A DNA stretch of 64,000 bases from Candidatus Bathyarchaeota archaeon (GCA_005884195.1 VBBP01000055.1:15021-79020); one strand, 5' to 3'. Positions 3,582 to 38,458 are shown, counted from the stretch's first letter. Notes: a model not told the origin generated them from the letters alone. Program-made: numbers and translations.

Positions 3582-4418
3582 TTTGGAGCTTAGACGCGTG
3601 GCTTCCTTCAAAGATTGAACGGTTTTTTTCAGTTGAGTCTCAGCTTGACTCGGATCATCGAGGTGGTTTCCGACGATTCTGACCAAAGCGCTTCCAACGA
3701 TTGCCCCGTCAGCCCCAGATTGTATGACGGCGGAGACGTGTTCAGGTTGCGAGATCCCAAATCCAGCGGAAACCGGAATCTTTCCCCTCGCCAAGAACTT
3801 GACCGCCCTGACAGCCTCAAGCGCTTGTGGGCTGAGCGAGTCCCGAGGACCCGTAACACCGTAGATTGAGACGAGATAGAGGAAACCCTTCGACTTGTCG
3901 AGAACGGTTCGGAGTCTAGTCCGGGAAGTGTTTGGTGCTGCCAAGTAGATGTTATCGACGTTGTGTTTCAGAGATATGTTCCTGAACTCCTCGCTTTCTT
4001 CGACGGGCAAATCTGGAACGACGATCCCGTCAACACCACTCTCACGAGCTTTCTGCAGGAAGCGGTCCAAGCCCATCGCAAGAATCGGATTGTAATAACT
4101 CAGAACGACAAACGGAACCGGAAACTGCGTTGAGAGTTCTCTGATCATGTTAAGGACTACTAGAGGGGTGGTTCCGTTGGACAAGGCGCGCATGCTAGAC
4201 GCCTGGATCACTGGTCCGTCGGCGATTGGATCCGAGAATGGAATCCCGATCTCAACGATGTCCGCTCCGCCCTCTATCAATGCGGTAGAATTAGCCAAGA
4301 ATGTTTTCGGGTCGGGGTCGCCCCCTGTTAGGTAAGCAACCAGTGCTCCCTCTCTGAGGCCACGGAGTTCTCGAAACTTCGCTTCTATTCTATCATCATT
4401 GTGGGAGGTGTTTGGCAA
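3573..4418 (-). CDS. trpA: tryptophan synthase alpha subunit
   Basis: [12 protein letters not shown] ... [17 protein letters not shown] motifs. Confidence 0.9.
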
Positions 4419-5598
4419 CTATCTCCACATCCTTGTCGCCCCTGCCTGAAAGGTTGACGATGATCGAATCCCTTGTCCCGAGACTCTTCGCCAACTTCAT
4501 CGTGTAACTGATAGCGTGGGCTGATTCCAAAGCTGGCATGATTCCCTCCAGTTGTGAGAGGTTCTTGAACGCCTCCAGAGCCTCCTCATCGGACACTGTG
4601 ACGTATTTGGCTCGCCCCGCAGTCATCAGGAAGGCGTGTTCCGGCCCGACGCCGGGATAGTCTAGCCCGGCCGAAATACTCCGGGTAGTCTGCACTTGTC
4701 CCACCTCGTTCTGCAGAACATAAGTCATCATCCCGTGTAGGACTCCTTCGCGTCCAGCAACTAACGGCGCCGCGTTTTGTCCCGGCGACAAGCTTTCTCC
4801 ACCCGCTTCGACTCCGTAAAGGTCAACATCCGGATCGTGCAAGAACGAATGGAAGATTCCGATCGAGTTGCTCCCCCCGCCGACACATGCAACTAGAGCT
4901 TTCGGAAGTCCGCCCTCTTGTTGCATAATCTGCTTCCGCGCCTCCTTCCCTATCACACTCTGGAAGTCTCGGACCATCGTTGGGTAGGGGTGGGGACCTA
5001 CAACCGACCCGAGAAGATAGTAAGTGTCCTGAACGTTTGTGACCCAGTCTCTCAACGCTTCATTGATCGCATCCTTCAAAGTCTTGGACCCGGACTCGAC
5101 TGGGTGCACTTTGGCACCGAGCATCTTCATCCGGTATACGTTCAACTTCTGCCGGTCCATGTCCTCGCTTCCCATGTAGACCTCCGCACGTAATCCTAAA
5201 GCTGCGCACGCCATGGCTGTAGCAACCCCATGTTGTCCCGCCCCGGTTTCGGCAATGATCCTTCGCTTTCCCATCTTCTTTGCAAGGAGAGCTTGGCCAA
5301 GCGTATTGTTGATCTTGTGAGCGCCGCCGTGCAAGAGGTCCTCTCTCTTCAGGTAGATTCTTGCTCCTCCAACATGGCTGGTCAGATTAGTAGCAAGGTA
5401 TAGTGGCGTAGGTCTGCCTGCGAAATCGTCCAGCCAGCCCGCCAACTCCTTCTTGCATGAGGGGTCACGCGAGAACCTATTGTATGCCTCCTCAAGCGCT
5501 CTCAGCGGCTCCATCAGGGTCTCAGGGACATACTGTCCTCCGTATTTTCCGAACTTTCCCGGCTTGGAATGTGTCCTTGGTTCGGCGTGTTTTTTCAA
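4396..5598 (-). CDS. trpB: tryptophan synthase beta subunit
   Basis: [16 protein letters not shown] and a PLP-fold region (GGGSNSIG). Confidence 0.92.
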
Positions 5599-6380
5599 GC
5601 GTTGACTAGCTCCCTTACCTTCCCTTCGATGTCCGACGATTTCATTATCGAAGTACCCACAAGAAATGCTCTGGCGCCCGCAGCTTTTAGTCGTCGGACA
5701 TCGTTGGGAGACTCTATCCCACTTTCCGATACGATCGGTCTATCAAGGTCGGCGTTCTCTGCGAGGATTTTCTCCGTGGTGGAGAGGTCCAGTTGGAATG
5801 TGGATAGGTTTCGGTTGTTGATACCGTAGAGGTCTGGTCTGAATCTTCGCAGATTCTCAAACTCGCCAGTGCTGTTTGCCTCCAGTAAGACCTCCAGTCC
5901 AAGCCGATTAGCTTCGAGAACCATACTATCGAGCCCAACATTGGACAGTTTCCTAGTGAAGATTTCAGAAATCAATACCACCGCACTTGCTCCGGCTCTT
6001 TTTCCGGCTTGGAGTTGCTTCAGTGACACAACGATGTCTTTCATTATCGTCGGCGCCTCAATATCCTGGCTGATGGTAACCAGTGTTTCCAAATTGCCAT
6101 CAAAGTTTTCCGGGTCCGTAATAACCGAGATCGCACAAGCTCCGCCGCTCAGCATTGCCCTCGCAATCTGAAGAGGGTCCCCAGGTTCTCTGATCTTTCC
6201 AGCGGATGGAGAAGCGTATTTTATCTCCGTGATGACCGGCGTCATTCTGCTGTCCTTGATTGCTCTTACCAAGCTTCTCGGAGATGTGTCTGCCGCACCA
6301 CCGTTGTCGTAGTAGCCCCGTGTGACTCTAGCTCTGGCTTTAGCGGCTAGCTCGGGCAAATGGTCTACCATGAATGTCAA
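5595..6380 (-). CDS. trpC: indole-3-glycerol phosphate synthase
   Basis: [20 protein letters not shown] and RNL motifs. ATGA-type overlaps with both neighbours. Confidence 0.85.
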
Positions 6381-7426
6381 GCCAAATCTTTGAGACGCTG
6401 AGTATTTCCGCCCGAAAACTCTACGAGCTGATGAAGGACTCGGAACGGCTTTCCGTCACTCACAACATTGGAAGCTATCTCTACTCCCTCTCCGAAATTT
6501 TCAGCTTTATCGCACAGGACGAGTCCCGCAGCCGCGTTCGCCAACACCATTTGGACGCGGGGATCGTTATGTCCTAGATGTCCTGATAGGATCTTGGCCG
6601 TGGTGCGCGCGTTCTCCTCTGGGTCAGAGCCAGCAACTTCCTCGGTTGTGCTTCTCTTGAAGCCCAGATCTTCTGGCTCCACCTCATCCCGAAACACTCT
6701 TCCATTTTGACGTCTTACGATGATTGTTTTGCCCGTTATGGAGATCTCATCGACTCCATCGAGCCCGTAGACGGTCATCACAGATTTCGCTCCTATGTTG
6801 TGGGCTGCGAGGCACATCGGTTCTAGGAGCTCACTATCGTAGACTCCGATGAGTTGGGCGTTTGCTCCTGCAGGGTTTGTTAGGGGGCCAAGGATGTTGA
6901 ATACGGTGCGCACGCCTATCTCGCGTCTCACCGAGGCCACATTTTTCATGGCCGGGTGGAAGTTGGGTGCGAACATGAACCCGATTCCAATCTCTTCGAT
7001 CGCCCTCTCGACCAACTCTGCTTCCATGTTCAGATTCAGACCCAATTGCTCGAGAACGTCTGCGCTTCCGCAGTTGCTCGTGAACGAGCGATTGCCATGT
7101 TTTGCCACCGGAACGCCAGCGGCCGCTATTACGAAAGCAGCGGTGGTGCTGACATTGAACGTCTTCGTTCTGTCTCCGCCAGTCCCGCAAGTATCCAACA
7201 GGTAACCGTCTATTTTCGGGTGGATTCTCCGGCTGAACTCCCGCATTACCTGCGCCAGAGCAGTGACTTCGTCAGCTGTTTCCCGCTTCTTCTTCAGTCC
7301 TATCAGAAACGCTGCGACCTGCGATGACGTCGCTTTCCCAGACATGATCTCCCTCATCGTAGTCTTCGCCTGATCGGGCGTCAACTCGTGATTCTCAAGG
7401 AGTAGCGGGATGCAATCTTTGATCAT
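6377..7426 (-). CDS. trpD: anthranilate phosphoribosyltransferase
   Basis: DTCGTGGD, NVSTTAAFV and LGPLTNPAGA motifs. ATG start. Confidence 0.9.
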   Translation of the reverse strand: MIKDCIPLLLENHELTPDQAKTTMREIMSGKATSSQVAAFLIGLKKKRETADEVTALAQVMREFSRRIHPKIDGYLLDTCGTGGDRTKTFNVSTTAAFVIAAAGVPVAKHGNRSFTSNCGSADVLEQLGLNLNMEAELVERAIEEIGIGFMFAPNFHPAMKNVASVRREIGVRTVFNILGPLTNPAGANAQLIGVYDSELLEPMCLAAHNIGAKSVMTVYGLDGVDEISITGKTIIVRRQNGRVFRDEVEPEDLGFKRSTTEEVAGSDPEENARTTAKILSGHLGHNDPRVQMVLANAAAGLVLCDKAENFGEGVEIASNVVSDGKPFRVLHQLVEFSGGNTQRLKDLA

Positions 7427-29142: not shown

Positions 29143-29303
29143 GCTGGATCATCTAGAGGATTGGTCGTCCGTTCGAATTATCTGGTTGGTCCCGTTATAA
29201 TATTTCTGCGACTCTGTCAAGACTTCGAGACTGGTCACGATAATTTCCTTTTTGGCTATCGGGAGGGTCAGGGTTGGTGTGAAATCTTAGAGGAATTGGG
29301 ATT

Positions 29304-30889: not shown

Positions 30890-31639
30890 CTGAAAGTAGT
30901 CGTGTGCGTGCGGCGCGTTCCGGACACAGCAACGCGCATCAAGATTGCACTTGATGGGAAATCAATTGTCACAAGCGATGCAGAGTTTGTAATCAATCCT
31001 TACGAAGAGTACGCTCTAGAACAGGGTGTTCAGCTAAAGGAGAAACACGGTGGAGAGGTCACTGTTCTCACCCTCGGACCCGAGAAGTCAACTAGCGTAA
31101 TTCTCAAAGCGCTAGCCCTTGGTGCGGACAAGGCGATTCATCTCAAGAGCGAAAATTTTCCAGATGACTCAAGCGCCGTTGCCCGGGCCATCGCTGCGGA
31201 ATTGAAATCAGTCGAATTCGACGTTCTCTTGTTTGGCAAGAAGGGTGTTGACGACGACAGCCAGCAAGTCGGGCAAATGGTAGCCGAACTTCTCGGGATT
31301 CCCTGCTCCACTCAAATCGTCAAACTCGACATCTCCGGTGGCAAGGCGATCGCTCATCGAGAAGTTGAAGGAGGAGTAATCGTTGTCGAGACTACCCTTC
31401 CGTCCGCATTCACCGCGGAAAAAGACTTGACCGTTCCTCGGTACGCGTCGCTAAGAGAATTAGTCGCTGCAAGGAAGAAACCTATTCTCGTGAAGGAGCC
31501 TCAACTGTTTCCGGGCATTCTGGAAATTGTCTCAATTCAATATCCTCCACCTAGACCTCCAGGCAGGGTACTAGGGAAGGGCGTTGAAGCGGTTCCAATA
31601 CTGGTCAAGGTTCTGCACGAAGAGGCCAAGGTGATCTAG
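30890..31639 (+). CDS. etfB: electron transfer flavoprotein beta subunit (FixA-like), likely CTG start
   Basis: The track starts at GTG 30902 (MCVRRVPDT). The CTG four codons upstream, right after a TAA, gives MKVVVCVRRVPDT, which matches the canonical MKIVVCVKQVPDT. Confidence 0.82.
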   Translation: MKVVVCVRRVPDTATRIKIALDGKSIVTSDAEFVINPYEEYALEQGVQLKEKHGGEVTVLTLGPEKSTSVILKALALGADKAIHLKSENFPDDSSAVARAIAAELKSVEFDVLLFGKKGVDDDSQQVGQMVAELLGIPCSTQIVKLDISGGKAIAHREVEGGVIVVETTLPSAFTAEKDLTVPRYASLRELVAARKKPILVKEPQLFPGILEIVSIQYPPPRPPGRVLGKGVEAVPILVKVLHEEAKVI

Positions 31640-31643
31640 CCAC

Positions 31644-32627
31644 ATGCAAGGCCCGATACTTGTCTTCGCGGAATCCGCAGGGAACGAATTCCGAAAATCC
31701 GCTTTCGAAGCGGTAACGGAGGCCAGGCGACTGGCCGACCTCTCAAAAAGTGAGGTTCACGCATTATCTATTGGTCATAAAATACGGGACCAAGCAAGTT
31801 CTCTGGGTAGGTTCGGCGCGGACAAGGTTTCGATCGCCGACGACGAGTCACTGAAGCTCTACCATCCGGACTTCTACCGACAGATCGCTCTCGACTTGGT
31901 AAAGAAAATTGGTCCCAGCGTCATTCTTCTCCCAGCCACCTCGACCGGCAAGGATCTAGGGCCACGCCTAGCAATTCATCTTAACACGGCCGTCGCGACG
32001 GAGTGCACCGAGCTGGAAATCAGTGAGAATGAGTTAATCGCAACTCGCCCTGCCTATGCGGGCAAAGTGTTGCTGAAAGTCAAAATCAAAGGGAATCCCA
32101 GGGTTGCAACTCTTCGCCCGAATGTATTCACTGCCAAGGAGAGAGTTCCTGCAATCAGTCCGTCGATCGAATCTCTCTCATTCGAGAAGCCAACCACGAA
32201 AATAACGGTGAAAGAGTTCGTCACCCAAGGGGCGAAGAAACAAGATCTCACTGAGGCAGGAGTGATTGTGTCAGGTGGAAGGGGAATGGGGGGACCTGAG
32301 AATTACAAGATTCTGGAGGAGCTTGCCAATGTAATGGGTGGTGTCGTTGGTGCATCGAGAGCATCAGTTGATGCGGGTTGGAGGCCGCACTCCGACCAGG
32401 TGGGACAGACGGGACGAACTGTCTCCCCGACGCTCTACATTGCCTGCGGCATATCTGGAGCCATCCAACACCGAGTCGGCATGATAAACTCGAAGGTAAT
32501 AGTCGCTATCAACAAGGACCCTGAGGCCCCCATTTTCGGGTTCGCGGATTACGGGATCGTGGGGGATGTGTTCGAGGTTGTCCCGGCACTCACTCAAGAG
32601 ATGAGGAAGTATTACGGCAAGAACTAA
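31644..32627 (+). CDS. etfA: electron transfer flavoprotein alpha subunit (FixB-like)
   Basis: FAD-binding C-terminal domain ([11 protein letters not shown]). Confidence 0.85.
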
Positions 32628-32637
32628 TCTTAGTTTG

Positions 32638-33006
32638 TTAGGCGTCCTCAAGCTTAGTTTTTAGGAATCTTGCGAGTTCTTGGCTTAGTGGGCTTCTAGA
32701 CACGTCGATTACCGGCATCTCAATGTTTCCGGACTTGACATTGTGGACGAATTCTGCCATGGGCGCGTAACTGATGGACGCTATGTAGAGTTCCCCACGG
32801 GCATATTCCTCTGGCATGTCTGAGGGCGGGATCGGCTGTGATACAAACACCATGCTCTCTGCCCATGTCAGTAAGACGGGTTGTCCCATCTTCATGATGA
32901 AGGACAACGCGTTCACGAGTTGTTGTGGGTTATCGTATTTGACGAGTTCTCGGATGACGATCCGCTTAAGCGGTTCGTGGGCGATCTCGACCATTTGGCT
33001 GCTCAT
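32638..33006 (-). CDS. hypothetical protein (within the fix/etf cluster)
   Basis: ORF only. Confidence 0.35.
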   Translation of the reverse strand: MSSQMVEIAHEPLKRIVIRELVKYDNPQQLVNALSFIMKMGQPVLLTWAESMVFVSQPIPPSDMPEEYARGELYIASISYAPMAEFVHNVKSGNIEMPVIDVSRSPLSQELARFLKTKLEDA

Positions 33007-33061
33007 TCCCGGTTTCCTACAGGCGAAGACGATAAGTTGCTGGTTAAGAGGGTTTCCAGGC

Positions 33062-33358
33062 TCAGCCTAGCTTGAAGCTTACTCCCTTTCCGCCGGAGGG
33101 GTACTTCCAGCTTATAGCCTTGGCTCCAATCTTGTGACAAACGATCAGGCAAGCGCCTGTTTCCATGCAGCCCTCAGTATTGTAATTCAGCTGGTCTTGC
33201 CATGAGTATACCTGAGCCGGACAAATGTAGAGGCATGGTTTCTTTTCGCATTTCTGACAGAGCTTCGTATCTACTTCTATAAACGGCTCGGGGTCCTTGT
33301 TGAAGCTAACAAGCGCTAATCGTTTGTCGAGACTCATTTCCTCTTGTTTCTCAGACAT
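33062..33358 (-). CDS. fixX: ferredoxin-like protein FixX
   Basis: Cys pattern CQKCEKKPCLYICPAQ ... CMETGACLIVC. Lies adjacent to fixC. Confidence 0.72.
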   Translation of the reverse strand: MSEKQEEMSLDKRLALVSFNKDPEPFIEVDTKLCQKCEKKPCLYICPAQVYSWQDQLNYNTEGCMETGACLIVCHKIGAKAISWKYPSGGKGVSFKLG

Positions 33359-33360
33359 TT

Positions 33361-34641
33361 CTAGAATGTCCTCGCTCCGGCAAGAAGGTCGCGTATCAAA
33401 CTCATGGTTGAGACCTTACCTTTTGTCTGTGCCCTAAGCTCCTTGTAGATTTTTCGCTTTCCGTTTCCATCAACGTGATAGACTGCTTCAGCAGCGTTGC
33501 AAACCAAATCTGGGTAGACATTGTAGAGCCTGTTGTTGCGTAGGTATCTTGGGACCTTGCTGAAAGTGTACATGTCTTTGAGGGCTGGCTCCTCTCTCAG
33601 CTTTCGCTCGTAGGTTTGGAGTGATTGAGCTGAGTAGTCCTTCCTTTTGCGGGCCTCGAGAATTGTGTGGGCTGCAGCAATGCCGGAGACAATTGCCATA
33701 TCCACGCCTCTGAAGGTGTAACCATTATTGAGTAGGTGTCCAGCCGCGTCTCCTGCTACCAGCATGCCTCCAGTGTAGGGTCTTGTCAACATCTTAGGCC
33801 CTGCTTCCGGGATCATATGAGCATCGTACTCGATCGTTTTCCCGTCTCTTATCAGACGTTGAACTCTGCGGTGGTTTCTCAATCGATCCATGAATGTGTG
33901 GGATGGGACTGCTTTCGTTGACGTATCATCAGCCCCGACAACCATTCCTAGAGCCAAGCTGTCTTTGTTCGTGTAGAGGAAGCCTCCACCGCGAAGTCCG
34001 CCGGAGCAGTCACCAACGAAGACATGGGCAGCACCTTCTCCGGGCTCAAGCCCAAAGCGCTCCTCAATTCTTTCGGCTGAAAGTTCAACAACATCTTTCA
34101 TTCCCATCGATACTTCTTCAGGCTCTAGCATGGTCGCGAGTCCGGCCCTTCGGGCGAGGCTCGTAGTGGTTCCGTCGCAGGCGATCACAGCGTCGGTTGG
34201 AATCTTGTCCTGACCCGCGATTATTCCCTTTACGCGTCCACCCTCGATTACTAAGTCGTCTACTCTTGAATCGGTAATCAGTGAAGCTCCTGCTTTCTCT
34301 GCCTGCTCGGCCAGCCACTTGTCAAACTTGGCTCGGATAGAAGTGAAGCTTCCCGTCGGATCCTTCGATTCGTATTCGATGCTAAACGAGCTGTCCGCCG
34401 TCATGAAGGTGATTCCCTCTTTTCTTACGAATCGTTCTACTGGTGCGTCTTTCCATCGGTCTCCAAGGAGGCGTTTGAGGGCGTAACTGTAGATTCGTCC
34501 ACCAAAGACGTTCTTTGAACCGGGAAACGTTCCACGTTCGACCAGCAGGACTTGGACCCCTTCTCGAGCGAGCGTGAGGGCGGCTGCGCTTCCAGCGGGG
34601 CCTGCTCCGACGACTGCGACTTCGAATCCTTCTAGTGACAA
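33361..34641 (-). CDS. fixC: FAD-dependent oxidoreductase FixC (ETF-quinone oxidoreductase-like)
   Basis: VAVVGAGPAGSAAA FAD motif. Geranylgeranyl-reductase/FixC family. Confidence 0.8.
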   Translation of the reverse strand: MSLEGFEVAVVGAGPAGSAAALTLAREGVQVLLVERGTFPGSKNVFGGRIYSYALKRLLGDRWKDAPVERFVRKEGITFMTADSSFSIEYESKDPTGSFTSIRAKFDKWLAEQAEKAGASLITDSRVDDLVIEGGRVKGIIAGQDKIPTDAVIACDGTTTSLARRAGLATMLEPEEVSMGMKDVVELSAERIEERFGLEPGEGAAHVFVGDCSGGLRGGGFLYTNKDSLALGMVVGADDTSTKAVPSHTFMDRLRNHRRVQRLIRDGKTIEYDAHMIPEAGPKMLTRPYTGGMLVAGDAAGHLLNNGYTFRGVDMAIVSGIAAAHTILEARKRKDYSAQSLQTYERKLREEPALKDMYTFSKVPRYLRNNRLYNVYPDLVCNAAEAVYHVDGNGKRKIYKELRAQTKGKVSTMSLIRDLLAGARTF

Positions 34642-34780
34642 CTCTGTCTCTATTTGGGGCTGGTCGTGGGGTTTATCGGGTTTAGCATGGCGCCATGGCC
34701 ATGGTTAGCGTTGGTTGTTGTTTGGCGCAGCTTCGGTCATCTCTAACGATTATGTTCGTGGGACGACTGATTACGTGTAA

Positions 34781-35100
34781 GGCGGTTCGTCATATGAGCT
34801 TCTCGAGCTGGGATGACGGGAGCGACTCCGACCGCCTGAGAGGCGTGTACCGGGGTTAGATGGTTGGTTGGCCACTGTAAAATCCTTGCCTGGCAATGGG
34901 CCAAGCTACCATGCTACGGGCGTGAGGGGGCGGTTGAGGTTCGACCGTTCCCTGCCGAACGGAGGTCACGGGCCTCTGAGGCGCAAGGGCTCTCAGGTGA
35001 AGCAGTGAAGGAGAACCCGAGGACGACGGCAATCCTCAGAGTCGATGAGAGCAAGTCTGGTCTTCAAAACAAACCGAAGACTCGACAGAACCTCGGGTTT
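34781..35100. repeat. non-coding ~315-nt element, copy 1 of 2 (candidate structured RNA)
   Basis: About 80% identical to 37934..38246, including a shared core of roughly 150 nt with only 3 substitutions. Substitutions in the overlapping +ORFs are almost all nonsynonymous, so it is not protein-coding. Confidence 0.5.
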
Positions 35101-35147
35101 AGCTCTGGGTCCATCTCCGGCCGCTCGAAAGTCAGCTTTTCGTGCTG

Positions 35148-35642
35148 TCATTTCCCTTTTGATTTCTCGGTCTCCCATCGTTGTTTCAATATCTGCTCGA
35201 TCAAGTCGACAGCTCTTTTGACCTGCCTCTGCATTGCCATCGGGTCATAACCAGCCGGTGGCTTGCTGTCCAAGTATCGTCTGTACATGTCGAAATCTAG
35301 GAATTTCTTGCTTGTTTCGAAAATTGCCATGAGTGCTGAAGACTCCATTTTGTCCAAGTCGTCTCGTCTGCAATGATAGAACCCTTTGTCCCTCACGAAG
35401 GTTATCTTTTCATTGCCGACAGAGTCGTTGTAGACATCTTCCCAGAGGTTTCTATCGACTTCGTTCTCGACTGAGTCGCCAGAGGCTAGCCTTGATTCGA
35501 ATTGTTGACGAAGTCGCTTGGCTTCTTGTTCCGAAACGTCAAGCGCTTTTGATACTTGTTCGATAGTTAGGCCCTTCTTGAGCAGATAGTAACACGCTTC
35601 TTGCAGATACTGAGAAGCGTCGTCTTCTCTCTGAGTACTCAA
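35148..35642 (-). CDS. hypothetical protein (possible HTH)
   Basis: ORF only. LTIEQVSKALDVSEQEAKRL is HTH-like. Confidence 0.35.
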   Translation of the reverse strand: MSTQREDDASQYLQEACYYLLKKGLTIEQVSKALDVSEQEAKRLRQQFESRLASGDSVENEVDRNLWEDVYNDSVGNEKITFVRDKGFYHCRRDDLDKMESSALMAIFETSKKFLDFDMYRRYLDSKPPAGYDPMAMQRQVKRAVDLIEQILKQRWETEKSKGK

Positions 35643-35673
35643 GTGAACTGTCTCCTAGCTGACTTGGAATTGT

Positions 35674-36069
35674 TCAAGGGCGCGCCTGGCTGGCTATGAT
35701 CCTCTGGAGAGACTCATGCACGATTTTGGCTTGGACTTCTAGTCCGAGATCAACAGAGGGGATGCCCATCACTCTACATCTGCTGAGAAGCTTCTTGTCA
35801 AGGCTTACTACGATGTATTTGTTATCCTTCGCGAGACTGACGACTTCATCGTCAGTGACTCCGGGTGTTACCTTCGTTGTCACCCAACCTAGATCTCTCA
35901 GATATTCATCCAGGCCGAACAACTGTTCGTCAAGGAGAATTGTAGGTCGATGCATTTCTCGCGCGCGCTTCGTTTGCTCAGAGTTCGATGAACGCTTCCT
36001 TAGAAGCTTTCGCGGTCGGTGGCTTTGGGAAAAGATAGAGACTGTTATTTCTTGAAGTATCTGCGGCAT
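35674..36069 (-). CDS. PIN-like domain protein (DUF5615 / Mut7-C-like), probable toxin-type RNase
   Basis: ILLDEQLFG ... LRDLGWVTTKV ... DDEVVSLAKDNKYIVVSLDKKL pattern. Real start probably the internal ATG giving MHRPT. Confidence 0.5.
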   Translation of the reverse strand: MPQILQEITVSIFSQSHRPRKLLRKRSSNSEQTKRAREMHRPTILLDEQLFGLDEYLRDLGWVTTKVTPGVTDDEVVSLAKDNKYIVVSLDKKLLSRCRVMGIPSVDLGLEVQAKIVHESLQRIIASQARP

Positions 36070-36419
36070 TTCCTACATTGGAAACGGTTTTCCGAGATAT
36101 TCTTTAGCCGTACGCTACAGAACGGACACGAATCTGGGATAGCTAATTTCTCTTCCGATCCAGCAAACGCTTCTGTCTTGAGACTCGGCGATGTGTGCCC
36201 CACTGTTGTACGGTGTCTTCTTGAGTAAGCGGTGAAGGAGCCTCCTGCAATGACAGCAGATGCAAGTAGTCCAACCGGTAGGGCGAAGCTCACTGTCGAG
36301 AATGTGCTGGCGAGGTAATCTTGCATGAACCGGTTGTGAACGTATTCATTATAGAGCCACATGGCTAAGAAAATATTCAGAGCCGACTGAACTCCTATCA
36401 CCAATGCTTTTCTGGACAC
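36045..36419 (-). CDS. small membrane protein with a C-terminal zinc ribbon
   Basis: Two TM helices, then CPFC ... CRKC. Confidence 0.4.
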   Translation of the reverse strand: MSRKALVIGVQSALNIFLAMWLYNEYVHNRFMQDYLASTFSTVSFALPVGLLASAVIAGGSFTAYSRRHRTTVGHTSPSLKTEAFAGSEEKLAIPDSCPFCSVRLKNISENRFQCRKCRRYFKK

Positions 36420-36567
36420 TTGGATCGTGCTTGATCAACTCCTGAAGAAACGATGCTCTGTCGCGGTTCTAAGAGTAGGATCGGCGTGTCTCGGAAATAA
36501 GTCTGCCCAAAAGTGGGGTGTCCATATGGGACTAGCGTTGTGCCTGCTGCAGTCTCTCAGTGTGGGG

Positions 36568-37752
36568 CTAGTGGTATGCTTCGAAGTCTTGTCCGAGAAG
36601 GTTTACGGCGATCTTCTGGATCATGATCTCGTCTGTTCCTTCGTAGATTCGGCAGACTCTAGTGTCAACGAGGTGTCTGGGTGCTCGTGTTTCGAAGCTG
36701 TATCCACTTGAGCCGAATATCTGAACGGTTCGGTCCGCGGCGTCGAATGATGCGTTTGAGGCGAAGTATTTTGCCTGGGCAATGGTGATGTCGGCGTGTT
36801 CGCGAAGTTCTTTGTTTTCCGGTTGTTCGTCGCTATGTTGTTTGAGCAGTGCTGCCTTGTAAACGAGGTTCTTAGCCGCTTCCAGATTCGTTGACATGAT
36901 TCCAATGTGTCGTTGAACGAGCTGGTGTTTTCCGATTGGTTTGCCGTGTTGTATTCGTTGCTTCGAGTAGCTGATGGCTTCCGTAATGCAGTCATCAATT
37001 ACTCCCAAGCACCCTGCGGCGACGCTGAGTCTGCCACTCATTAGCCCAGAGTAGGCGACGCCGAGACCCTTTCCAAGAGGGCCAAGTAGATTCTCTTTAG
37101 GGACCCTGCAGTTATCTAGGAAGATCGAGCCGGTGTCTGATGTTGGCATTCCTAGCTTGTGTTTCTGTTGTTGTGATGAGTAGCCTTCGAATCCTTTCTC
37201 AACTATGAACGCGCACATTCCATCGTGCTTGCCCTTCGGGTATGCGAATATTACCGACGTGTCGGAAATGCTGCCGTTAGAAATCCAGGCTTTGCTTCCG
37301 TTCACGAGGTAGTGAGTTCCCTTATCTTCGAAGGAGGTTCGGAGCGAGGTGGGATCGCTCCCCGCGGTGGGCTCGGTCAGCCCAAAACACATTATCTTTT
37401 CCCCTCTGGTCGCTTGCGGAAGATAGCGCTGTTTCTGTTCCTCATTCCCCCACTTTTGCACCGTCAACTGGCCTAGAGAGACGTGCCCGGAGAGAAACGT
37501 TCGGACCCCAGTTCCTTCTCGGCCGATCCTCTCCAAAGCCAGGGCATAGGTGAGAATGTCAGCACCTTGCCCCTCACCGTAGCGTCTCGATATGGGAAGC
37601 CCTAGCAGCTGAGCCTTCTTGAAAATGGGGATAAGATGATCGTTGAACTTTCCCGCCAGGTAGGCCTGGTCCTCTAACGGGCGGAGTTCCCGGCAAGCCC
37701 GGTCAACCTCATCTAGGACAAGCTTCTGCTCGTCGGAAACGTCGAAATTCAT
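36568..37752 (-). CDS. acyl-CoA dehydrogenase
   Basis: ACAD family (GLTEPTAGSD ... YEGT). Start taken at the ATG giving MNFDVSDEQ. Confidence 0.85.
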   Translation of the reverse strand: MNFDVSDEQKLVLDEVDRACRELRPLEDQAYLAGKFNDHLIPIFKKAQLLGLPISRRYGEGQGADILTYALALERIGREGTGVRTFLSGHVSLGQLTVQKWGNEEQKQRYLPQATRGEKIMCFGLTEPTAGSDPTSLRTSFEDKGTHYLVNGSKAWISNGSISDTSVIFAYPKGKHDGMCAFIVEKGFEGYSSQQQKHKLGMPTSDTGSIFLDNCRVPKENLLGPLGKGLGVAYSGLMSGRLSVAAGCLGVIDDCITEAISYSKQRIQHGKPIGKHQLVQRHIGIMSTNLEAAKNLVYKAALLKQHSDEQPENKELREHADITIAQAKYFASNASFDAADRTVQIFGSSGYSFETRAPRHLVDTRVCRIYEGTDEIMIQKIAVNLLGQDFEAYH

Positions 37753-37933
37753 CTTAGAGAGATCTTCGCTACCCGAGTCTACAACTGTCTTCAATCGAAA
37801 CAATCTCTCGTTACCCCGGTCCTTAATGTGAGTTTTGTCTAAAAGAGGATCACTGTAAAATCTTCGGTTGACTCGTACCGATAGTTTTTGGAATCTCTAG
37901 TGAATATTAGTTAGGGACATAGTATGATTGCCA

Positions 37934-38246
37934 GGGCGGTCGTCGTACGAGCCTGTCACGCTGGGATGAGGGGAGTGACTCCGACCATGTGACGGGTATG
38001 AACTGGGATAGCCGGTTGGTTGGCCACTGTAAAATCCTTGCCTGGCAATGGGCCAAGCTACCATGCTACGGGCGTGAGGGGGCGGTTGAGGTTCGACCGT
38101 TCCCTGCCGAACGGAGGTCACGGGCCTCTGAGGCGCAAGGGCTCTCAGATGAAGCAATGAAGGGGAACCCGCCGACGACGGTAATCCCCGGAGTCGATGA
38201 GAGCAAGCCGAGTGCAAAAACAGACCGAACACTAGGTAGAACCTCA
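37934..38246. repeat. non-coding ~315-nt element, copy 2 of 2
   Basis: See copy 1. Its 3' end overlaps the start region of a small AbrB-like ORF. Confidence 0.5.
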
Positions 38247-38293
38247 AAACGTTATATCACCGGCCGAATGTTTTCGTCTGCGCGGCGGTCGCT

Positions 38294-38458
38294 TTGCCAA
38301 TTCAGGTGGATGAGGAGGACATTCCTTTCTTTGCGGAGGTCATAGCTGGGGGAAGGATAACGATACCTGAAGAGATTCGGAAAATCTTCGGAGTGAAAGA
38401 TGGTGACCATGTCATGTGTAGGGTGCGGCTCGTAAAGCGGGCCGAGGACGTCAAGTAA
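38294..38458 (+). CDS. small AbrB/MazE-family (SpoVT/AbrB-domain) protein, 54 aa, missed by the ORF track
   Basis: Hand translation gives GGRITIPEEIRKIFGVKDGDHVMCRVRLV, a swapped-hairpin antitoxin-like motif. TTG start; below the 60-aa track cutoff. Confidence 0.4.
   Translation: MPIQVDEEDIPFFAEVIAGGRITIPEEIRKIFGVKDGDHVMCRVRLVKRAEDVK

Follow-up and report, generated by a model that had tools for sequence, protein, structure and literature searches.

What are the two related non-coding sequences that lie about 3 kb apart in a contig of a Candidatus Bathyarchaeota archaeon (GCA_005884195.1, VBBP01000055.1:15021-79020; this stretch of 64,000 nucleotides is referred to as the window)? A first-pass annotation of the window had described them as two diverged, directly oriented copies of an element of about 315 nt, here copy A and copy B, flanking a 3-kb gene set, and had considered a small RNA as well as a mobile repeat. 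Our analysis makes it highly probable that each copy is a miniature inverted-repeat transposable element (MITE) of about 395 bp that arrived by independent insertion, has IS6/IS26-like ends and 8-bp target-site duplications, and carries an omega-RNA module derived from the gene of the nuclease TnpB. We refer to this element as an omega-MITE.

Both copies lie, in direct orientation, where they had been annotated (coordinates of all features are given in Table 1), and a 35-nt core probe matches the window at these two places only (chance expectation 0). Overall identity, put at about 80% before, is slightly higher (267/312 = 85.6%, 34781-35092 against copy B). The alignment contains a 203-nt block at 95% identity and a 75-nt 5'-side block at 73%; the flanks have diverged as described, with A and B 70% identical in the 5' part and 79% in the 3' part. 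The core is indeed identical, but the three substitutions reported near its 3' end are not there, the first difference being at 34997. The true unit exceeds 315 nt, with some 90 nt more on the 5' side, where it reaches a left terminal repeat.

The copy count in relatives that the annotation had proposed shows a multicopy element of soil Bathyarchaeia, with up to 8 copies per metagenome-assembled genome (MAG). A pattern scan with one genome per species gave 28 loci, of which 8 are in MAG BA_24, 6 in BA_23, 4 in MNGN and 3 in TA_14; with nhmmer, L015 gained a second copy and L001 a divergent one. Two of the homologous loci, L015 (BA_23) and L020 (BA_22), are syntenic with the window at ~91-92% identity, and L026 at 85%. 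L015 carries copies A and B; L020, which covers the copy-A side only, carries copy A.

Across loci the unit measures 388-400 bp and all copies share both ends. These are 22-bp terminal inverted repeats (GGCACTGTCAAC... and ...GTTGACAGAACC; consensus left GGCACTGTCAACTCTTCGGTTG, consensus right as reverse complement GGTTCTGTCAAGTCTTCGGTTG), with 19/22 positions identical between the family-consensus ends. In copy A the right inverted repeat (35071-35092) is intact (GGTTCTGTCGAGTCTTCGGTTT on the - strand; two mismatches to the 22-nt consensus, one in the 19-nt scan) and the left one (34684-~34722) is degenerate; copy B has GGATCACTGTAAAATCTTCGGTTG on the left and 38222-38243 on the right, with four mismatches each. 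Duplications of 8 bp, at a match of at least 7/8, bound 26 independent omega-bearing insertions and 10 other elements. That of copy A is perfect (8/8) and that of copy B has decayed to 6/8. The empty site of copy A is preserved in L026, where the 409 bp of 34684-35092 are absent and a single TCGGGTTT (in the context TTA-TCGGGTTTGGGTCTAGG) lies inside 85%-identical synteny; in the window, L015 and L020 the same 8 bp are found on both sides of the copy. Since all copies share both ends and have a uniform size of 390-400 bp, we take omega-MITEs to be a propagated unit and not random truncations. Copy B, common to the window, L015 and L026, with decayed ends and a 6/8 duplication, is the older insertion; copy A is younger, with a rearranged left end. 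Inverted repeats, 8-bp duplications and an empty site make up the anatomy of a MITE, one of the options that the annotation had named, and its view that the copies are not attachment (att) sites was also right.

The interior of the element can be traced to the 3' end of tnpB. In L006, L011, L013 and L018 an open reading frame (ORF) with Pfam PF07282 (Cas12f1-like TNB) has the homologous stretch as its C-terminal coding part; CxxC...CxxC...DRDxNA is intact in this ORF, which reads through to ...CAGAA(C/T)C. The full-length TnpB relatives of L032, L033, L034 and L102 (377-427 aa) match NF040570/TIGR01766 and the TnpB structures 8BF8/8EXA/8H1J. The scaffold overlaps the tnpB 3' end and stops at the right transposon end in L006, L011, L013, L018, L032-L034, L084 and L102. 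In the window copies the tnpB part survives as a frame-broken relic only: tblastn aligns 34963-35091 of copy A with the L011 TnpB C-terminus, and similarity of the window type to TnpB is confined to two short segments that lie in different frames. TnpB is thus not encoded by the window copies; what they conserve is the region that serves as omega RNA scaffold in TnpB elements. Because the conserved ~315 nt are homologous to tnpB 3' ends, and the frame is broken while pairing is kept, we read them as an omega-RNA-like scaffold without its nuclease gene. The earlier description as a conserved RNA or DNA element and not a protein thus stands for the frame-broken window type, but not for its ancestry, the core being homologous to the C-terminal coding region of TnpB, which in part is the kind of match to a protein gene family that the annotation had said would count against its reading. 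An intact TnpB (L032) shares a 1.28-Mb contig with MITE copies (L001). As a separate observation, L034 encodes a second, unrelated TnpB (5561-6637, - strand; OrfB_IS605 + TNB; 28% identity to the L032 TnpB) 0.4 kb from the omega-MITE-family TnpB, in a MAG labelled Methanomethylicota/Verstraetearchaeota.

Homology and structure were analysed with nhmmer, RNAalifold and pair counting. On the + strand the RNA folds better than its shuffles, with z = -3.7 for copy A and -2.2 for copy B. Pairs were counted on a 37-sequence alignment (A6), against an RNAalifold structure computed from the 28 MITE-type rows, so that the tested structure derives from the same sequences. Pair-forming cells amount to 88.4% (82.5% in shuffled alignments), pairs with both sides changed number 43 (26.2 +/- 3.1), and the covariation score is 0.179 (0.108), a value reached by 0/500 shuffles and approached by none of the slid controls (at most 0.073). 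The clearest case is helix 13, CUCUCA/UGAGAG in MITE copies and GAGGCA/UGCCUC in coding copies, where five pairs have changed jointly in 8 sequences. Invariant G-U pairs occur on the + strand only, and the window type has an extra hairpin, GAGAC...GUCUC, that is missing from the coding copies. In the window type, then, the TnpB frame is broken and the alignment argues that RNA base pairing has been kept by compensatory changes.

Two processes seem to have shaped the core. Within it, A and B of the window are 99.3% identical, whereas each is 88-93% identical to its own orthologue and A and B of L015 are 89.8% identical to one another; outside the core the pattern is reversed, with paralogues at 70-79% and orthologues at 84-97%. 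Core identity above orthologue identity, reversed outside, indicates a gene-conversion tract of ~135 nt between A and B in the lineage of the window, and not constraint alone. The copy B core is also 90.6% identical to that of L026, where third codon positions of neighbouring genes are at 62-70%, and this conservation, together with the compensatory changes, argues for purifying selection on the core.

A short motif sets the insertions apart. Of 26 independent insertions that bear omega or TnpB and have kept their duplication intact, 25 have T-purine immediately 5' of it on the omega-sense (left) side, mostly as TTG or TTA (binomial p = 6e-22 against 12.5%), compared with 4/26 at the mirror position on the other side and 5/20 at the ends of ten non-omega elements (chance expectation 2.5). 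In the empty allele this motif directly precedes the duplication and the downstream flank, that is, what follows ...CAGAACC when the site is occupied and is the presumed guide; the left junction of an occupied site agrees with that guide over 8 nt only. Such a T-purine motif fits a TnpB target-adjacent motif (TAM) next to a guide target, and suggests that selection has favoured insertions which TnpB is able to defend or drive.

A candidate source of the transposition machinery was found in metagenomes, where a scan with the inverted-repeat pattern gave at least 120 loci. Among the loci listed, three classes share inverted repeats and 8-bp duplications: elements of 3.2-4.4 kb with a SWIM + DDE_Tnp_IS240 transposase (PF13610, E = 5e-16 and 1e-19) and cargo without assigned family; TnpB-only units of 1.3-2.0 kb (L084, L102, L033); and omega-MITEs of 0.39 kb. 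Omega-MITE inverted repeats are combined with a DDE_Tnp_IS240 transposase in L094, L072, L119 and L078, with perfect 8-bp duplications in all of these but L078 (2/8). The element at L094:6432-10399 has perfect 25-bp inverted repeats and the duplication TCTAGCCC. IS6-family ends are characterised by a tip of GG, the motif cTGT and 8-bp repeats (PMC7986276). Omega-MITE ends have the GG tip and CTGT (GGCACTGTCAAC against GGCACTGTTGCAAA of IS26, a string that occurs in IS26 papers, for example PMC8477213), and the caaa block only in part. The autonomous relatives (L094:6432-10399, L119:360-4780, L072:8008-11213 and L078:126-4029) also contain 3-4 ORFs without Pfam match (e.g. 224, 179 and 194 aa in L094), and their IS6-type transposase is unusually long, with an N-terminal SWIM zinc finger. 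This departs from the usual IS6 pattern, passenger genes being reported as rare in the family, with only one such member (PMC7986276).

Several element ends are unusual in other ways. L010 and L012 have two copies of the right terminus (CAGAATCACAGAACC), with the 8-bp duplication after the second; the left end of L016 contains CTGTCAAA three times over. L005, L021 and L002 (two of them in one genome) have at least 60 nt in common beyond the right end (GGAGTGTCCACTGTCCAGATATGAACCATTTATCG...), with a matching duplication in L005 only, which suggests recombination between copies or insertion into another repeat. An intergenic, solo inverted-repeat-like sequence in the window (29210-29228, +; GACTCTGTCAAGACTTCGA, three mismatches), with a similar one suggested in syntenic L020, may be due to chance or be the relic of an end. 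Units of 79 bp at L103:1970-2048 and some 15 further metagenome loci (e.g. L046, L067, L075, L076, L092) consist of nearly only two inverted copies of the omega-MITE inverted repeat and are not bounded by a matching duplication of 8 bp; such units may be minimal derivatives, or else a repeat of the family that forms hairpins.

These features suggest how the element would work. An IS6-family DDE transposase encoded elsewhere presumably moves the MITE in trans. The interior, probably derived from the last ~400 nt of a tnpB gene, of which part doubles as omega RNA scaffold and ends at the right transposon end, would be transcribed into an omega-RNA whose guide, at its 3' end, comes from the neighbouring flank, namely the duplication and the DNA downstream of it. 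A TnpB from another locus of the genome would bind and use this RNA in trans and cut empty alleles (TTR, where R is a purine, followed by the target), so that the insertion would be more readily retained or would home. More tentatively, we propose an alliance in soil archaea, which may or may not prove correct: IS6-type DDE transposons would have captured a TnpB/omega module and spawned protein-less guide-RNA MITEs. On this view the DDE transposase seems to be without TAM preference, non-omega elements being mostly without the motif; TTR would be the footprint of TnpB-driven homing or retention, only insertions landing 3' of a TAM would be kept or spread, and the MITE omega-RNAs would parasitize TnpB in trans.

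A number of observations weigh against a functional omega-MITE. Neither a TnpB of the omega-MITE family nor an IS6 transposase is encoded in the 64-kb window, further intact inverted repeats are absent from it, and a recognisable archaeal promoter or terminator was not found. With a degenerate left end in copy A and two degenerate ends in copy B, both window copies may be immobile fossils. Other intergenic DNA is also fairly conserved with L026 (80-88%), and gene conversion among paralogues may explain part of the conservation. The NF040570 scores of the full-length relatives (89-92 bits) are under the NCBI cut-off of 100. What the TAM reading rests on is position and asymmetry; a target preference of the transposase is a possible alternative source of the motif, the comparison set being small (10 elements), and some of these ten may be undetected TnpB types. 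Taken to its end, this line of argument leads to inert fossils, decayed TnpB 3' fragments with no present RNA function that resemble each other by recent descent and gene conversion. The degenerate inverted repeats in both window copies, the clear gene-conversion tract and a window without TnpB would all agree with such fossils. We nevertheless consider them unlikely, as all MITE copies have both ends and a uniform size in common, the core is 90.6% conserved where synonymous sites are at ~65%, compensatory changes maintain helices including the MITE-specific inserted hairpin, and the TAM-like motif is retained in 25/26 insertions. An IS200/IS605-type palindrome-associated transposable element (PATE), moved by a Y1 TnpA through single-strand 'peel and paste', would also contain a TnpB omega-like module, and omega-RNA-encoding PATEs are known (10.1101/2023.03.14.532601). 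True terminal inverted repeats and 8-bp duplications are, however, absent from IS200/IS605 elements, and elements with the same ends as ours encode DDE_Tnp_IS240, not Y1, so that we regard this origin as very improbable. Little more can be said for an IS6/IS26-style pseudo-compound transposon carrying the 3-kb gene set. Copies in IS6-family compound structures are always directly repeated (PMC7986276), as are the window copies, 3.15 kb apart; but L026 has the inner genes and copy B without copy A, copy A has its own duplication on both sides, and the outer flanks of A and B differ. That the repeats flank a gene set, as annotated, is a coincidence of two independent insertions, and a pseudo-compound transposon is hardly credible.

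Readings that dispense with transposition, or with RNA, fare no better. A gene family for a small RNA, be it housekeeping or a new trans-acting one (SRP-like, RNase P-like or novel; SRP, signal recognition particle), would be structured, conserved and without coding signal, as the element is, and there are loose motif likenesses to the SRP Alu domain, noted in the annotation, and to conserved regions CR-IV and CR-V of RNase P RNA. The SRP resemblance found no support, as no Rfam family matches. Rfam 15 gave no match at gathering score on the window, none at E<=10 on the element, even with only 371 nt searched, and tRNAs only on the homologous loci. The RNase P-like 3' extension is not conserved, conservation stopping at ...CAGAACC, and an RNA gene unrelated to transposons would not be expected to reach 8 copies in a genome or to come with inverted repeats, duplications and an empty site; such a family has almost no probability left. 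For RNase P RNA, an apparent likeness of CUGUAAAAUCC, GAUGAGAGCAAG and ACAGAACC to CR-I/IV/V had led to a proposed P4 pairing, but its 3' strand CGGGUUUA is copy A-specific flank and lacks conservation. Other candidates were discarded as well: a riboswitch or leader, because downstream genes and orientations vary among loci; LINE/SINE-like retroposition (long and short interspersed elements), prompted by the odd copy A 5' end and its duplication, in view of uniform 5' ends and inverted repeats across loci; and a closing RNA helix CUGUCAA/UUGACAG of the 5' and 3' ends, which a DNA inverted repeat explains better. A literature search for a structured RNA of Bathyarchaeia found nothing. That the element encodes a small protein, one of the 95-180 aa 'hypothetical proteins' of the databases, is also very doubtful. 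One frame is open through the core, the + ORFs called across the copies (34864-35250 and 37989-38345) do have a common frame, and comparison of their translation with protein databases returns 668 'hypothetical proteins' (80-184 aa, 64-97% identity), some of them from Bathyarchaeota MAGs. None has a Pfam domain, three sit in unrelated gene neighbourhoods, and ORF lengths, starts and ends vary. The amino-acid differences between the copies listed in the annotation (G->D, V->M, E->G, R->P, A->V, L->P, R->G) were all recovered, and copy-to-copy changes are non-synonymous; the TnpB homology switches frame. Codon-phase diversity is strongly periodic upstream in the coding copies (0.25/0.43/0.25), against weak phase differences in the window type (0.19/0.25/0.16 in the 5' half, 0.15/0.11/0.13 in the 3' domain). 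The 668 domain-less ORFs are thus best regarded as mis-called over conserved non-coding DNA.

Table 1. Omega-MITE copies of the window, their parts and the genes between them.
Feature	Position	Strand	Basis or remark
Copy A, omega-MITE	~34684..35092	+	insertion relative to L026; nhmmer match 34778-35094; inverted-repeat scan
Copy A, omega-RNA-like structured scaffold, homologous to tnpB 3' end	34780..35092	+	tblastn, alignment A6, covariation, fold
TTA, TAM-like motif directly 5' of copy A left duplication	34673..34675	+	
Copy A, left 8-bp target-site duplication TCGGGTTT	34676..34683	+	match extends to 11 bp, TCGGGTTTAGC
Copy A, right target-site duplication TCGGGTTT; also predicted guide start (~35093-35112)	35093..35100	+	guide role predicted from TnpB/omega-RNA architecture
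Gene-conversion tract	34862..34996	+	135/135 identical to 38014-38148
Four host genes between the copies: helix-turn-helix (HTH) 164 aa, Mut7-C/PIN-like 131 aa, 124 aa, acyl-CoA dehydrogenase 411 aa	35148..37803	-	Pfam; present in L026 without copy A
Copy B, omega-MITE	~37847..38243	+	nhmmer match 37932-38245; inverted-repeat scan; orthologous copies in L015 and L026
Copy B, omega-RNA-like scaffold	37933..38243	+	copy-to-copy comparison, fold, alignment A6, covariation
TTG, TAM-like motif 5' of copy B decayed left duplication	37835..37837	+	
Copy B, decayed left target-site duplication TCTAAAAGA (TCAAAAGA in orthologue L026)	37838..37846	+	6/8 match to TCAAAACG
Copy B, right target-site duplication remnant TCAAAACG; also predicted guide start	38244..38251	+	

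The four genes between the copies include no integrase, as had been annotated, and since L026 has them without copy A they are neither part of the element nor its cargo. The three small ones (35148-36419, -) have a weak HTH_23 match, a Mut7-C/DUF5615 PIN-like domain and, in the 124-aa protein, a hydrophobic N-terminus and Cys-rich C-terminus as judged by eye; NCBIfam matches none of them. With 82-88% identity to L026 at first and second codon positions, they evolve faster than the neighbouring genes, and they might be a toxin-antitoxin-like or defence islet. Both MITE copies are inserted at intergenic positions of a conserved block (30902-34641 and 36568-37803) that comprises two adjacent + ORFs (30902-32627), probably the electron-transfer flavoprotein (ETF) subunits, a FixX-like ferredoxin, a FixC/ETF-QO-like oxidoreductase and the acyl-CoA dehydrogenase. 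An all-against-all blastp of the ORFs of L001-L034 found as recurrent the spurious element ORFs, TnpB and a methyltransferase in 5 loci; no recurrent transposase was found near the copies in this comparison. The methyltransferase, of UbiE/Methyltransf_11 type, is found no more than a few kb from the element or from TnpB in L001, L002, L005, L025 and L034, where orthologous loci and a real association are both possible. In L003 an element copy is flanked by tRNA genes with long insertions (5223-5334 and 3754-3876; ~35 nt in the D-arm region, and one in the anticodon region), which are probably archaeal tRNA introns.

The omega-MITE explains why databases of Bathyarchaeia and soil metagenomes list hundreds of 'hypothetical proteins' at its positions. 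For the mining of small RNA-guided nucleases it offers an archaeal TnpB/omega-RNA family, compact and abundant, for which there are an alignment, a fold supported by covariation, defined ends and TTR as candidate TAM. Transposase target choice and TnpB TAM, which are fused in IS605 biology, stand apart here. If the DDE transposase does ignore TTR, TAM enrichment would be population-level evidence for TnpB homing or retention outside IS200/IS605; guide RNAs would, if the proposal is correct, spread as MITEs without their nuclease.

Comparison with known systems places the element between several of them. With IS6/IS26 (Varani et al., 2021; PMC7986276) it shares GG-tipped inverted repeats, cTGT (GGCACTGT being common with IS26), 8-bp duplications and, in the autonomous relatives, a DDE_Tnp_IS240 transposase, and MITE derivatives are known there too. 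IS6 elements are, however, ~700-890 bp (about 800) in size with a transposase of 220-250 aa, whereas the relatives found here are 3.2-4.4 kb, with cargo and a SWIM-DDE protein of 375-408 aa; unlike that of IS6 MITEs, the interior of the omega-MITE is a TnpB-derived RNA module. This module resembles the omega-RNA (reRNA, right-end RNA) of the OMEGA systems (obligate mobile element-guided activity; ISDra2 and its relatives; Karvelis 2021, Altae-Tran 2021, both cited in PMC10691335) in that a structured, conserved scaffold overlaps the tnpB 3' end and ends at the right transposon end, with a variable flank as presumed guide and a short motif preceding the target. It differs in having inverted repeats and duplications in place of IS200/IS605/IS607 ends, in a conserved RNA that is long (~315 nt), in coding relatives whose TnpB ORF runs to the very end of the element, and, for the window type, in lacking the nuclease gene; no Rfam model matches it. 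The PATE-like IS605 elements (Meers et al., 10.1101/2023.03.14.532601) are likewise protein-less, keep transposon ends and omega-RNA and need TnpB and transposase in trans. PATEs have asymmetric subterminal hairpins, no duplications and a Y1 TnpA target site that is the TAM; the omega-MITE has IS6-like inverted repeats, an 8-bp duplication and a TAM-like motif one duplication length (8 bp) from its left end. In the DDE-associated TnpB branches (Altae-Tran et al., 2023; PMC10691335), TnpB also lies in elements with symmetrical ends, and solo TnpBs are mobilized in trans. The main text names only IS630 (branch DDE-6), with no IS6/IS240 partner, archaeal soil lineage or MITE derivative; a literature search that covered the main text of that paper found no description of an IS6/IS240 partner for TnpB or of an omega-MITE. 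The omega-MITE is therefore not a new class of RNA but a new family of known kinds of element, joining the omega-RNA, the PATE-like guide-only element and the DDE-linked TnpB.

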